Source: a virus
Lineage: Duplodnaviria; Heunggongvirae; Uroviricota; Caudoviricetes
Direction: 5' to 3' (one strand)
Length of the DNA: 13,112 bases
IMG/VR virus record: IMGVR_UViG_2695420523_000015
Numbering within the stretch: position 1 is the first letter of the stretch; every line of letters begins with the position of its first letter. Below are positions 6,001 through 9,000 of this stretch, one piece after another. The position numbers were made by a program.

Positions 6001-9000
6001 CAGGCCGACGCGGTGGCGAGACATGAAAAAGGCGACCTTATCAGCGTGGCGGGTAACATGCAGATCAGCCAGTGGACCGGACAGAACGGAGAAACACGGC
6101 AGGGCTGGCAGGTTATCGCTGACAGCGTAATCAGTGCCCGTTCGGCGCGTCCTGGCGGGAAGCGGGGGCAACAGGGGAAGGCGACCGAAGCACAGGAAAG
6201 AGCAAAACGACAGACCGGACAGCAGGGAAATCAGCCACCAGCGGGAGGTGATGACCCGTTCTCTGACGATATTCCGTTCTGAATGACAGAAGCACAACAT
6301 GAACCAGCAGACCACACAACAGGACCAGACCACACGTAAACCATCACGGCGCATACCGTGGCAGCACATGACAAAGCGGCAGCGAAAAAACCGCAGGAGG
6401 ATAAACCGACTGGCTGAGTACTGGCCTGAACTGTTTGGGGCAGAGAATATAAAACCCCTTAAGGCTGGCGTGATACACGATATGTTGCAGGACGCGAAGG
6501 CGCGGGAACTGGCGATTGGTCATGGCGTATTACGTGGCGCATTAACCTCACACCTTCACACGACGCGATACCTTAAGGCGATTATTGCTGGTGGCCCACG
6601 GTACGACCTGAACGGGCAACCTTGCGGCGAAGTCACGGAGAAAGAGAAAGCAGCAGCCAGCGAACAACTGATGTGGAGGCTGGAGCAGATAAAACAGCAA
6701 AACATCCAGCGGCAGGATACGGGAGGTGGTGAGAGTGATAACAGACAGCGTGGCACAGAAACTTGAGGAGCGCGGTTTATGGCGACGTGCGGCGACCCGA
6801 TGGGCTGAGGTTCTTCTTCACGCAGAAACGGACAGTGAACGCGAGGAAGCTGCCAGACGTCGGGCGATATGCATCAGTAAAACCCGTCGTATGCCTGAAC
6901 AACTGGTCACCTTTGGCGATGTGAAAAAGGCCGCAGACAGAACGCTGAAAGAGATGGGGATTAATCCGCAGGATGAATGGAAAAATTACAGCTTCAGTGA
7001 TGCAGGCGACGATTTAGCGCTATCGTGATACGCATATCATCGCCGTATTTGCTCAATTATCGCGATTCGCTATAATCACCACCGAAAGGTCGTTGATGGT
7101 GTTCGCCTCGGGCAACTGGAGCCCGACAGCATGAAGCCAGCCAGCGGCTTTTCGGTACTCATTTTGATGTGTACTTGTCACACACATCGGGATGAGTGAA
7201 CGACGAAAACATCACGGTGATTTCGTCATGCCGCGATAAGAATGCGCCTCTTTGGGCAATTGAAGCCCTCTGTACAGCGGGTTATCGCGGCAAAGTTGTG
7301 ATAAAAACGCGCCTCTTTGGGCAACTGGAGCCCACTGTAAAGCGGCTTATCACAGCTGGCGGTAACGGGCGCTCATCTCCGGGCAACTGAAGCCCTCTGT
7401 ACAGAGACCCGTTACGGCTGACCCTGAATGATTTCTGCCACGTGCAACTGGAGCACCCGGAGAAATCTTTCAGGGTTTTTTATTGCCCCTCCACCAGCAC
7501 CACATCTGTAGCATTGATGCGTATACATTCGCCGTCAATTGCACCGTTCCGGCCCTCACCGTCACGCACCACAACAGAATGACCAGGCAGGCCATAACGC
7601 GCCACCTTTCGACGAACACCATCACCAGCGCCCTCACGACGCTCATACACATTAATCCGCTCAAGAAGACCATCACGCACCATAGCTTCCAGCGTGCGCC
7701 TTGTTGATTCGATCTGATACCGGCTGTTGAATGAATCCATACCATGCAGCAGGTAAGCCACACCGGAGACATCAAACGGCGGACTGCCAATTTCGGCAGT
7801 AACCCACGCCAGATTGTCGGGAGTGAAGTAACTGAGGATCTCTTTTTTGTATTGCGTCAGTCTCATAGTGACCTTTCTTGTTGTAGGATGAATCCCTCAT
7901 ACAATAAGCCATAAGACAAATTTTGAAAGGACAGAATCGGCGGGGTACAGATGATACGTGATGACAAGGCTGAAGCGCTGGAGAATAGCGGCCTCTGGCG
8001 GCGTGCTGCTGAACGCTGGGGAGAATTGTTCAGACAGGCAAAAACTGATGAAGAGAGGCACTATATTACCCAACGAAGGGCGCAATGCACGGCAAAAGCC
8101 ACCAGACCAAAAACAACAGAGTGGGGGCATGTATGCGCCGTCAGGGCAGCAGCGACCAGAACGCTTAAAGATATGGGGATTGACCAGAAAAAAGAAGATC
8201 CTTTACGGGGCACGAAGTACAGGGGTGAAACAGGGCGAAGAGACGGAAGTTAATATGGACACAATAACTGATAAAAAAGCCGAACAACTGGAATCTCAGG
8301 GACTATGGCGAAGAGCCGCCGCTCGTTGGCTTGACGTAATGAAAGAGGCCCACACCGATCCGCAGCGAGAACATATAGCCAGACGGCGGGAAATATGCCT
8401 TGCGAACTTCAGGATGCTGTAAATAAGACTGTTGACGATATGGGAATCAGACGGGATCGGCGACATTACGGGTTATGGAAATAACAGCCAGGTAAATTGG
8501 TGAATATACGGCAGGCTGCAATCAGAGCCGAACATAGCGGCCTCCGTCACCATTATCAGACAGTAGCGGTAGTCCTTCCATCACAGCAAAATGCTACCCA
8601 CTTCACAGCCCCTTAGAAGCCTCTTCGATGGGGTGAAAAATCCCTGAAAAAATGCGCAAAAAAGTGCGCAAATCGATCATAAAACTGATCACAAAATCGA
8701 TCACACAGACAAACAGAGCAAAGCCAGATATGACGCGGCTTGCAGGGGGATAGACACCTCAAAAAGTGCGCAAAAAACTGCGCATTTTTCTCAAAAACGA
8801 AACGCAACAGGAAGCGCAAAACGAAACCGATACGTAATGATCGAAAAAGTGCGCAAAAATGAGCGTATAAAAAAGGGGAGGTTACAGGGGCAGGAGTGGT
8901 GTATTTGTTATCATTTCTACCTAACCTCAACACATTGGGGGAGCGATGACGGACGTTGAATTGTCAGTATCAATTCGCTGCATTATCTCACAGAAAGTAC

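Follow-up and report, generated by a model that had tools for sequence, protein, structure and literature searches.

A FinO/ProQ-type protein encoded by an optional gene in the replication module of EcCICFT073-type PICI

The FinO-domain proteins studied to date are encoded either on plasmids, as are FinO and FopA, or on chromosomes, as are ProQ, RocC and NMB1681. Control of satellites and PICI is thought to be protein-based, with AlpA and antirepressors as its agents, and that of P4-type elements to depend on a processed antisense RNA that works without a protein cofactor. Among the plasmid proteins, FinO acts on FinP/traJ (PMC9674577), and FopA acts on the pair formed by the antisense RNA Inc and repZ mRNA, both of which it binds, and has the same phylogenetic distribution as this pair (PMC7491321). 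The prototype Gram-negative PICI, EcCICFT073, has a backbone that runs from an integrase through an AlpA-type regulator, small ORFs, primase, origin and ssb to perC (PMC6092414). Literature that pairs FinO/ProQ proteins with PICI, P4-like elements or satellites was found to contain mentions at the annotation level only, one being a 2026 survey in which 'ProQ' appears as an accessory gene of one Enterobacter PICI (PMC13612085). Of the island proteins discussed or verified in the main text of a study of the EHEC RNA-binding proteome, none is named as a FinO-domain protein (PMC7618764).

The window analysed here is a stretch of 13,112 nucleotides from a Caudoviricetes record (IMGVR_UViG_2695420523_000015) that shares the EcCICFT073 backbone order and additionally encodes a FinO/ProQ-domain protein of 155 residues in an ATG-to-TGA ORF on the plus strand (6299-6766). 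The identical protein is present in RefSeq (WP_001076062.1), where it already bears the name "ProQ/FINO family protein"; given this name and the Enterobacter survey, the gene that the earlier note on this DNA had singled out is, as an annotation, already described. A functional study of the gene was not found in the literature, and its product is best regarded as an uncharacterised new member of a known family with a predicted capacity to bind RNA.

The host element and its replication module

The module begins with a P4-alpha-like primase/helicase on the plus strand (3518-5341), which contains D5_N, DUF5906 and Pox_D5 domains and the TIGR01613 P4-family primase C-terminal region. Directly 3' of this gene is the replication origin, a crr-like iteron field (5344-5590) with nine exact copies of the octamer TGTTCACC between 5355 and 5575 and several near copies, which lie in either orientation and surround an A+T-rich stretch. 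Nine copies were reached in none of 200 shuffles, and the octamer is the one annotated as 'ori type 1 repeat' in phage P4. The following gene, ssb (5833-6282, plus strand), encodes a single-stranded DNA-binding protein with an acidic C-terminal tip (...DDIPF) and is the first of a closely packed ssb-proQ-perC group. Only 16 nt separate the ssb stop from the proQ start, and the 3' end of proQ overlaps by 32 nt a gene for a PerC-family small regulator (6735-7028, plus strand), whose GTG start in RefSeq (6735) and GGGAGG Shine-Dalgarno sequence (6721-6726) both sit within proQ. No terminator was predicted on the plus strand from the primase gene to ssb, and, going solely by this absence of consensus signals, ssb, proQ and perC may be transcribed together with the primase. 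The location of the gene beside ssb and a replicon is thus as the earlier note had described it, and the occurrence of a FinO-domain ORF beside a replicon is well beyond chance expectation. PADLOC returned zero defence matches for ProQ, SSB, PerC, the primase and a 128-aa neighbour.

The earlier note had also placed the element among the P4-like satellites, a label that is apt for the alpha-type primase, the TGTTCACC type 1 iterons just 3' of its gene (comparable to P4 crr) and the CI/C4-type antisense RNA immunity with an Icd-like gene, but less so for the rest of the element. Whereas psu, delta, sid and epsilon are present in P4, which lacks ssb, FinO-domain and PerC genes, none of psu, delta and sid is annotated in the near-identical islands L001 and L026 or was matched by any window ORF that was compared to Pfam or PHROGs. 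Because these genes are absent and AlpA is present, EcCICFT073-type PICI is a more fitting name for the element than P4-like satellite. Its left end, with integrase and AlpA-type regulator, lies outside the window; in L026 and L001 these genes are present and show the one-direction arrangement of Gram-negative PICI. The L026 integrase has matches to PF00589/PF13356, the L026 regulator reaches 72.5 bits against AlpA (PF05930), and the left end of this island is at tRNA-Gly. The primase followed by an iteron origin is a further PICI trait, and the annotations of L001 and L026 contain no phage structural or lysis genes. As regards attR, a tRNA-Gly 3'-end probe had no match in the window and a direct-repeat scan of L026 yielded nothing useful.

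EcCICFT073 itself differs in that its ssb is directly followed by perC, without a FinO-domain gene, and in having capsid genes downstream. It also has no C4 or isrK RNA at the Rfam gathering score; its YlcI/YnfO and Icd-like cassette is present also in L001. Across 66 islands with a close primase the ProQ gene occurs in four (~6%), always in the slot after the origin or ssb; in the window the order is primase, iteron origin, ssb, proQ, perC. These comparisons of gene content identify it as an optional accessory gene of EcCICFT073-type PICI whose slot within the replication module is fixed, and, with its absence from both P4 and EcCICFT073, they bear out the view that it is no standard part of P4-like elements. 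In loci of E. coli, E. ruysiae, Citrobacter, Salmonella and Serratia the upstream replicase is of the D5/P4-alpha type or the DUF927 type and precedes the ProQ gene with or without an intervening ssb. More distant relatives adjoin replicases of unrelated types, and in Sansalvadorimonas two ProQ copies adjoin a Rep_3 initiator. In the majority of loci ProQ is translationally coupled to a PerC-family gene, L073 and L002 being loci without a detectable PerC.

Fold, predicted RNA contacts and conservation

The product matches the Pfam ProQ/FinO profile (PF04352) at 86.1 bits (E = 2e-24; gathering cut-off 27 bits), with residues 31-135 covering profile positions 4-107 of 109. The structure prediction and alignment to FinO/ProQ that the earlier note had suggested as a check are in agreement with this. 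Sequence matches to solved FinO-domain proteins were obtained with the ProQ N-terminal domain (5nb9, 4.7e-13), RocC (7rgu, 5.7e-11), FinO (1dvo, 3e-10) and NMB1681 (3mw6, 3.6e-8). The AlphaFold2 model has an overall pLDDT of 78.7, with values of 85-95 across residues 21-130, and contains helices at 26-41, 58-68, 75-86, 89-97 and 114-141 and strands at 100-102 and 108-111. When this model was compared to the PDB with Foldseek, all 27 top matches were FinO-domain structures (RocC: E = 2.4e-7, TM 0.82-0.83), and the first match after them had E > 3. On this modelled fold, and with the predicted RNA-pocket residues also in agreement, the gene encodes a FinO/ProQ-type protein, as the earlier note had claimed. 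Nevertheless, it scores below the NCBIfam cut-offs of both the ProQ equivalog (NF003434, 56.5 bits against 127; residues 25-142 at positions 4-121 of 205) and the FinO subfamily (NF010317, 56.3 bits against 136), and by this measure it appears to be neither a ProQ nor a FinO orthologue.

The protein begins with a Q/T-rich disordered tail (residues 1-23), followed by a very basic helix (24-41, with eight K/R), the FinO core (42-113), a long C-terminal helix (114-141) and a second disordered tail (142-155) that is missing from some relatives. The basic helix, MTKRQRKNRRRINRLAEY, encoded at 6368-6421 on the plus strand, is near-invariant and matches in position the helix alpha2 of RocC, which makes extra contacts to the RNA backbone (PMC9674577). 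RNA-contact residues were transferred from the RocC-RNA crystal structure (PMC9674577) via the alignments to solved FinO-domain proteins. In RocC the pocket for the 3' nucleotide is formed by Gly52, Tyr87 and Arg97, with a further RNA contact by Arg75 (PMC9674577). The predicted equivalents of the pocket residues, G57, Y91 and R101 (ProQ G37, Y70 and R80), are present in 36 of 36 homologues, and R79 (the equivalent of the phosphate-contacting Arg75) and R90 are each present in 34. The N-cap presents a different picture. RocC touches the RNA with the side chains of Ser70, Lys71, Ser72 and Lys73 (PMC9674577), opposite which the island protein has G-H-G-V. Of the 36 homologues, 34 have Gly rather than Ser at position 74 and just five have Lys at position 75; since the modelled helix begins at residue 75, the N-cap position itself is retained. 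The clade has Gly-x where the family N-cap has Ser-Lys, which suggests an RNA specificity unlike that of ProQ, FinO and RocC. The natural Ser-to-Gly swap also offers a handle on how the N-cap motif determines RNA specificity in the FinO family.

Over the 36 homologues (42-89% identity to the window protein) 13 columns are invariant and another 26 nearly so. Intact copies, with dN/dS of 0.17-0.38, are by this codon-level measure under purifying selection. The copies in L024 and L030 are frameshifted, and codon 139 shows a stop polymorphism in L027 and L029. We also considered a nucleic-acid element hidden within the gene, as distant E. coli homologues have a DNA-level match confined to gene positions 57-132. 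In that segment synonymous-codon identity (0.53) lies within the range of the other core segments (0.51-0.53); since it is not raised, the match is attributable to amino-acid conservation and the element was rejected.

Antisense RNAs and the possible functions of the protein

Upstream of the primase operon, and consistent with the antisense-type RNA that the earlier note had placed there, Rfam detects two C4 and two isrK-like RNAs between 1849 and 2596, all on the plus strand. The first immunity module has an isrK-like RNA (1849-1926; 50 bits at a cut-off of 50), with a terminator hairpin at 1906-1920 followed by a U run (T7), and a C4-type antisense RNA (2028-2115; 70 bits, cut-off 45). The second has an isrK-like RNA (2405-2483) that at 35 bits is under the gathering score and overlaps a c4-a1b1 target-like match (2392-2441), and a second C4 copy (2509-2596; 73 bits), after which an Icd-like remnant and small ORFs extend up to the primase gene. 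A conserved candidate antisense RNA common to all ProQ-bearing islands was not found within the module. A minus-strand countertranscript against the primase leader was likewise considered and rejected: its best terminator-like hairpin (3432-3413), with no convincing sigma-70 promoter by eye, occurs in just two islands, the near-identical L001 and L026, and terminator-like hairpins are as numerous in shuffled as in real sequence.

The proximity of these RNAs had led the earlier note to propose that the protein might assist the neighbouring antisense RNA. Such a cofactor of the C4 RNA or of the isrK-like leader, aiding its pairing with targets and so controlling the icd-primase replication operon in the manner of FinO-FinP/traJ or FopA-Inc/repZ, is in our estimate improbable. 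In its favour, the window carries both pairs of RNAs, and the isrK-like terminator hairpin with its U tail has the shape that FinO domains recognise (PMC9674577), while IsrK of Salmonella is a ProQ-associated sRNA (PMC5391140). Of 16 ProQ-bearing loci, six have C4/isrK RNAs, and of 10 ProQ-less islands none has, though in a confounded sampling. However, the O145:H28 island L001, with flanks 98-99% identical, keeps the identical ProQ gene beside a swapped immunity cassette in which C4 and isrK are absent even at E <= 1 in Rfam. C4 is furthermore missing at the gathering threshold in 10 of the 16 ProQ-bearing loci, including all three IMG/VR loci of the same primase background that were scanned with Rfam (L048, L073 and L074). 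Strict co-occurrence is thereby ruled out and an obligate partnership becomes unlikely. P4 too has a C4-type (CI RNA) immunity yet no FinO-domain gene, and the C4 immunity of P1 is not known to involve a FinO-type cofactor. If the ProQ gene is co-transcribed with the operon that C4 silences, little protein would be present in the immune state.

We give about even credence to the reading that this minimal FinO-domain RNA-binding protein, an optional PICI gene of the replication module, is a riboregulator that serves its own element. The gene would be transcribed with the replication genes upon de-repression of the island, and the protein, by analogy with FinO, FopA and RocC, may grip terminator-like hairpins with a 3' tail and would stabilise, or promote the pairing of, a small number of structured RNAs (perhaps a single one) by which island replication or induction is tuned. 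Where an isrK/C4 cassette exists, the terminated isrK-like leader would be a plausible ligand, the cassette not being an obligatory partner. Support for a replicon-linked role comes from the fold, the pocket residues, the selection, the fixed slot, the operon packing and the precedents of FopA, FinO and IsrK. Set against an element-serving role are the G-H-G-V at the N-cap contacts, the absence of the gene from EcCICFT073 and from 62 of the 66 close-primase islands, the frameshifts in L024 and L030, and the failure to find a conserved candidate antisense RNA in the module that all ProQ-bearing islands share. A more specific form, which we hold to be unlikely, is that the Gly-x-Gly N-cap clade was recruited as a dedicated riboregulator of PICI replication or induction through a new RNA, which could be either a transcript that spans the iteron origin or the very mRNA of ssb-proQ-perC. 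If true, a phage satellite would for the first time be shown to use an RNA chaperone in its life cycle, and FinO domains would gain a fourth independent link to replicon control; a merely redundant ProQ paralogue would be an ordinary finding.

Every host species in which the island protein was found is known to have its own ProQ, and the solved relatives closest in sequence are the ProQ N-terminal domain and RocC (~35% identity). A role in trans, on transcripts of the host or the helper phage, is conceivable but unlikely. As a ProQ paralogue that lacks the linker and Tudor domain, the protein would compete with host ProQ, or stand in for it, on structured sRNAs and 3'UTRs; it would thereby reprogram host physiology or virulence or disturb the helper phage, with the co-transcribed PerC-family regulator acting alongside it. 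The translational coupling to PerC-family genes in most loci is consistent with this, as PICI PerC-like proteins affect LEE expression (PMC11773190), as are the chromosomal RNAs bound by FopA and NMB1681 (PMC7491321; PMC9674577) and the accessory-type distribution in a minority of islands. The constant neighbour, however, is the replicase, origin and ssb rather than PerC, as L073 and L002 illustrate; FinO-domain proteins of mobile elements mostly aid the propagation of their own element (PMC9977716), and PADLOC gave no defence match. That same neighbourhood, with the gene always directly after the origin or the origin and ssb, could also be taken to mean that the protein handles nucleic acid at the origin (primer RNA, R-loops or ssDNA, with SSB) and is not a riboregulator, an idea in line with the very basic N-terminal helix and the lack of conservation of the hairpin-reading N-cap side chains of RocC. 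We judge this very improbable: gene order by itself is a weak basis, and FinO-domain proteins are not known to act on nucleic acid at an origin. Moreover, the pocket for the terminal ribose 3' end is invariant (roles: PMC9674577). Highly improbable, finally, is a decaying passenger without present function in islands. The frameshifts, the codon-139 polymorphism and the presence in merely ~6% of close-primase islands would fit such decay, but the dN/dS values, the 13 invariant and 26 nearly invariant columns and the retention of the same slot across E. coli, Salmonella, Citrobacter and Serratia argue against it.

A conserved predicted RNA chaperone in the PICI replication module provides a concrete entry to the question of how satellites of EHEC and other pathogenic E. 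coli are controlled post-transcriptionally, and the same islands encode PerC-family regulators acting on the LEE virulence island.

Comparison with known FinO-domain systems

Among described proteins FopA (YafB) of the IncI plasmid pCol1B9 is, from its published description, likewise a minimal FinO-domain protein of a mobile element. Both it and the island protein lack FinO's N-terminal domain as well as the C-terminal domain of ProQ, and each carries an N-terminal extension with positive charge. FopA is plasmid-borne and has a known RNA partner, whereas the island protein is encoded on a chromosomal island. The two are apparently not close relatives, because just 69 of the 2591 plasmid records matched in a tblastn search of PLSDB are from Escherichia. 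FinO of F-like plasmids (1dvo) has the fold in common (Foldseek E = 4.1e-7, 29% identity), and shares with the island protein the basic N-terminal helix, the conserved Arg/Tyr pocket and a mobile-element origin. It differs in serving conjugation through FinP/traJ and in having Ser-His-Lys-Lys at the N-cap, where the island protein has Gly-His-Gly-Val.

The N-terminal domain of E. coli/Salmonella ProQ (5nb9) is the top sequence match among solved structures (~36% identity), and its R58, R69, Y70, R80 and K35 are identical in the island protein; R32 is conservatively replaced by Lys, and in place of K54 and R62 the island protein has H75 and T83. ProQ also has a linker and a Tudor-like C-terminal domain, both lacking in the 155-residue island protein, and it belongs to the core genome as a global RNA-binding protein, whereas the island gene is optional. 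RocC of Legionella pneumophila (7rgt/7rgu) is the top structural match (TM 0.82-0.83, 35% identity) with a conserved pocket, but differs from the island protein in being extended by a long C-terminal region and in having RocR as its dedicated sRNA partner.

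Family, fold and RNA-contact residues

The ATG-to-TGA ORF at 6299-6766 on the plus strand encodes a 155-residue protein, which the earlier note had taken for a ProQ/FinO-domain RNA chaperone. The family assignment is right, and it is already annotated in RefSeq, where the identical protein WP_001076062.1 of O145:H28, O157:H7 and bovine STEC genomes bears the name 'ProQ/FINO family protein'. The Pfam profile PF04352 (ProQ/FinO) matches with 86.1 bits (gathering score 27, E = 2e-24) and is spanned nearly fully by residues 31-135, and sequence searches recover every solved FinO-domain protein: the ProQ N-terminal domain (5nb9, 4.7e-13), RocC (5.7e-11), FinO (3e-10) and NMB1681 (3.6e-8). 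Against the NCBIfam models of ProQ proper and of FinO proper it scores 56 bits each, short of their cut-offs of 127 and 136; the protein is thus a member of the family that is orthologous to neither. Its predicted structure (pLDDT 78.7 overall, 85-95 across residues 21-130) has disordered ends at residues 1-15 and 142-155. In a Foldseek search of the PDB with this model the top 27 matches were FinO-domain structures, among them RocC (E = 2.4e-7, TM 0.82-0.83) and FinO (E = 4.1e-7), and no structure lacking this domain was found with E < 3. A FinO fold is thus predicted, and on this point the earlier identification stands. The pI of the full-length protein is 10.2.

In the RocC-terminator crystal structure the 3'-terminal nucleotide is held in a pocket of Gly52, Tyr87 and Arg97, while a helical N-cap (Ser70, Lys71, Ser72, Lys73, Arg75) reads consecutive hairpin phosphates (PMC9674577). 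These contacts were transferred to the window protein via alignments to solved FinO-domain proteins and then tallied in an alignment of 36 homologues. The pocket equivalents G57, Y91 and R101 are conserved in all 36 sequences, and both R79 (RocC Arg75, ProQ R58) and R90 (ProQ R69) in 34. The N-cap sequence here is G74-H75-G76-V77, with Gly at position 74 in 34/36 homologues and Lys at position 75 in just 5/36. As the helix still begins at residue 75 in the predicted model, the N-cap geometry is probably retained, with its side-chain contacts lost. The core is preceded by a near-invariant basic helix (residues 24-41, MTKRQRKNRRRINRLAEY, 8 K/R), which recalls the positively charged N-terminal stretches of FopA (PMC7491321).

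The host island and the slot behind ssb

The element has a backbone in common with the prototype Gram-negative phage-inducible chromosomal island (PICI) EcCICFT073 (coordinates from the PMC6092414 supplement), and hence appears to be an EcCI-type PICI whose parts for replication and immunity are P4-like. Unlike P4-like satellites it has no psu, delta or sid, and is therefore not one of these in the strict sense. The primase (3518-5341, plus strand) contains D5_N, DUF5906 and Pox_D5 domains and scores 95 bits against TIGR01613 (P4-family primase C-terminal region), under the model cut-off of 108.7. Directly downstream, at 5344-5590, is an iteron cluster in which the octamer TGTTCACC occurs in both orientations, as 9 exact and several near copies; the 9 exact copies were matched by none of 200 shuffles. 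P4 carries 11 copies of this octamer, annotated there as the 'ori type 1 repeat' of crr and ori. Unlike in P4, the primase gene in the window has no predicted terminator ahead of the iterons, and no plus-strand terminator is predicted between primase and ssb either. The ssb gene (5833-6282, plus strand) encodes a protein with the canonical acidic C-terminal tip (...DDIPF) by which host SSB recruits replication and repair proteins; an sRNA from the ssb 3'UTR is reported as a Salmonella ProQ associate (PMC5391140). The ssb gene ends 16 nt before the ProQ gene, which in turn overlaps perC (6735-7028) by 32 nt. The position beside ssb and a replicon is thereby borne out. In EcCICFT073 ssb is directly followed by perC, with no ProQ/FinO gene between them.

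A DNA-level homologue of the ProQ gene is present in 273 of 5426 complete E. coli genomes, every time on the chromosome. The IMG/VR loci compared were 66 whose primase is 85-88% identical to that of the window and which continue for 2.5 kb or more downstream; ssb comes next in 51, and only 4 have a FinO-domain gene, all 4 directly after ssb. The gene is thus optional, in keeping with the earlier remark that it was not known as a standard part of P4-like satellites. The slot is the same for homologues in Citrobacter, Salmonella, E. ruysiae and Serratia, with a D5/P4-alpha-type or a DUF927-type replicase upstream. PerC usually follows directly, with overlapping or abutting start and stop codons; an exception is L073, a locus with a capsid gene cluster in its place. 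Since the slot is kept behind varied replicases while PerC is not always present, the constant neighbour is the replication module. The two replicase types have a homologous N-terminal segment of ~130 aa in common (tblastn cross-hits); the remainder differs and the downstream ssb-proQ-perC module is constant (L013, L003 and L029 vs the window, L002 and L012). In a Sansalvadorimonas MAG each of five contigs (L007-L011) carries a 36%-identical FinO-domain gene, two copies adjoining a Rep_3 initiator; these contigs are possibly a family of small plasmids or repeated elements.

O145:H28 RM12581 has the island between yicC and dinD, in the order integrase, hypothetical gene, HTH regulator, Rha, AntA fragment, YlcI/YnfO, Icd-like gene, small ORFs, primase, SSB, ProQ/FinO and PerC. 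The genomes most similar to the window have it at tRNA-Gly, adjoining the ETT2 region, with AlpA (PF05930, 72.5 bits) as the HTH regulator and a tyrosine recombinase as the integrase. The Rha-to-PerC module is 98-99% identical at the two sites (L001, yicC-dinD; L026, tRNA-Gly beside ETT2) and the integrases differ (WP_024201490.1 and WP_001368189.1); nearly the same module behind different integrases points to a recent mosaic exchange of integration modules. The window genes at 9056-13034 (a YeeE/YedE sulphur-transport protein, an antiterminator-Q family protein and a GH15 glycoside hydrolase) separate the island, in the closest genomes, from the degraded ETT2 type III secretion locus, and are probably outside the PICI; no attR marking its right end was found in the window with the tRNA-Gly 3' end as probe. 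The island has three PerC-family genes (6735-7028, 7951-8253 and 8255-8422, the third of only 55 aa), the first two of which also weakly match the ANR (AraC negative regulator) family; a PICI PerC-like protein is reported to repress the LEE rather than activate it (PMC11773190).

The antisense-RNA cassette

The antisense-type RNA proposed near the replicon is recovered by Rfam as two C4 antisense RNAs (2028-2115, 70 bits; 2509-2596, 73 bits; cut-off 45) and two isrK-like RNAs (1849-1926, 50 bits, at the cut-off of 50; 2405-2483, 35 bits, below it), all on the plus strand upstream of the primase operon. The two isrK-C4 modules (1836-2115 and 2392-2596) are divergent, with 59% column identity, and so are two different cassettes in tandem. 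The segment 1513-2657 is swappable: the window has two isrK-C4 modules, L026 one and L001 none, a YlcI/YnfO-type cassette being found there instead, with no C4 or isrK detected by Rfam even at E <= 1. This suggests that PICI immunity specificities are swapped or stacked as modules. A 507-aa ORF at 838-2361 is an artefact, its AntA match being limited to the first ~90 residues; RefSeq has a truncated antA/antB pseudogene here, and the remainder reads through the isrK/C4 RNA genes. At 3413-3432 on the minus strand, just upstream of the primase start and against the operon direction, is an intrinsic-terminator-like hairpin (7-bp stem, T6), present only in near-identical islands; no promoter for it was found.

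Possible roles and known systems

As host ProQ of Salmonella has IsrK among its documented ligands (PMC5391140), the isrK-like leader is a plausible ligand of the window protein where present. The proposed partnership with the neighbouring antisense RNA finds no support as a rule: L026, with one isrK-C4 module, and L001, with none, both have a ProQ gene identical to the window's and flanks 98-99% identical. C4 is found in 6/16 ProQ-bearing loci vs 0/10 ProQ-less islands, a contrast confounded by locus sampling, and in none of the three ProQ-bearing loci of the same primase background scanned with Rfam (L048, L073, L074). The cassette cannot be an obligatory partner, and a specific C4/isrK cofactor is quite unlikely. 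It is doubtful that the protein is a ProQ paralogue directed at host or helper.

A role in handling nucleic acid near the origin, together with SSB, is highly improbable. We give least credence to a decaying passenger. Frameshifted copies do occur (L024, L030), but pairwise dN/dS values of 0.17-0.38 against three relatives indicate purifying selection. A stop-codon polymorphism at codon 139 in L027 and L029 removes the last 17 residues, whose coding stretch overlaps perC; as some relatives stop there, these residues are dispensable. The L027 copy is mosaic, its first half identical to the window's and its second diverged.

The gene belongs to a known family, and is itself optional and uncharacterised. 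The PICI papers describe PerC as common and do not mention ProQ/FinO (PMC6092414, PMC11773190), and a literature search found no paper with both 'FinO-domain' and 'PICI'. A 2026 survey has 'ProQ', by annotation only, among the accessory genes of one Enterobacter PICI (PMC13612085), a 2026 Vibrio study describes episomal satellites with a ProQ/FinO-like regulator (PMC13230959), and PHROGs has three FinO-like phage families, each labelled 'unknown function'. According to the family review, chromosomes often acquire plasmid- and phage-borne homologues (PMC9977716). The modest peculiarities of the gene are its replicon-linked slot in PICIs and the altered N-cap.

The FinO fold, intact 3'-end pocket, conserved basic helix and purifying selection, along with the fixed replication-module position and tight packing with ssb and perC, are the basis of a model to which we give an even chance, that of an island-tuning RNA chaperone of the replication module. 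The gene would be co-expressed with the replication genes on induction, and its product would bind terminator-like hairpins with 3' tails, and stabilise or matchmake one RNA, or a small number of them, by which replication or induction of the island is tuned. FopA acting with Inc/repZ, and FinO with FinP/traJ, are precedents for such a role.
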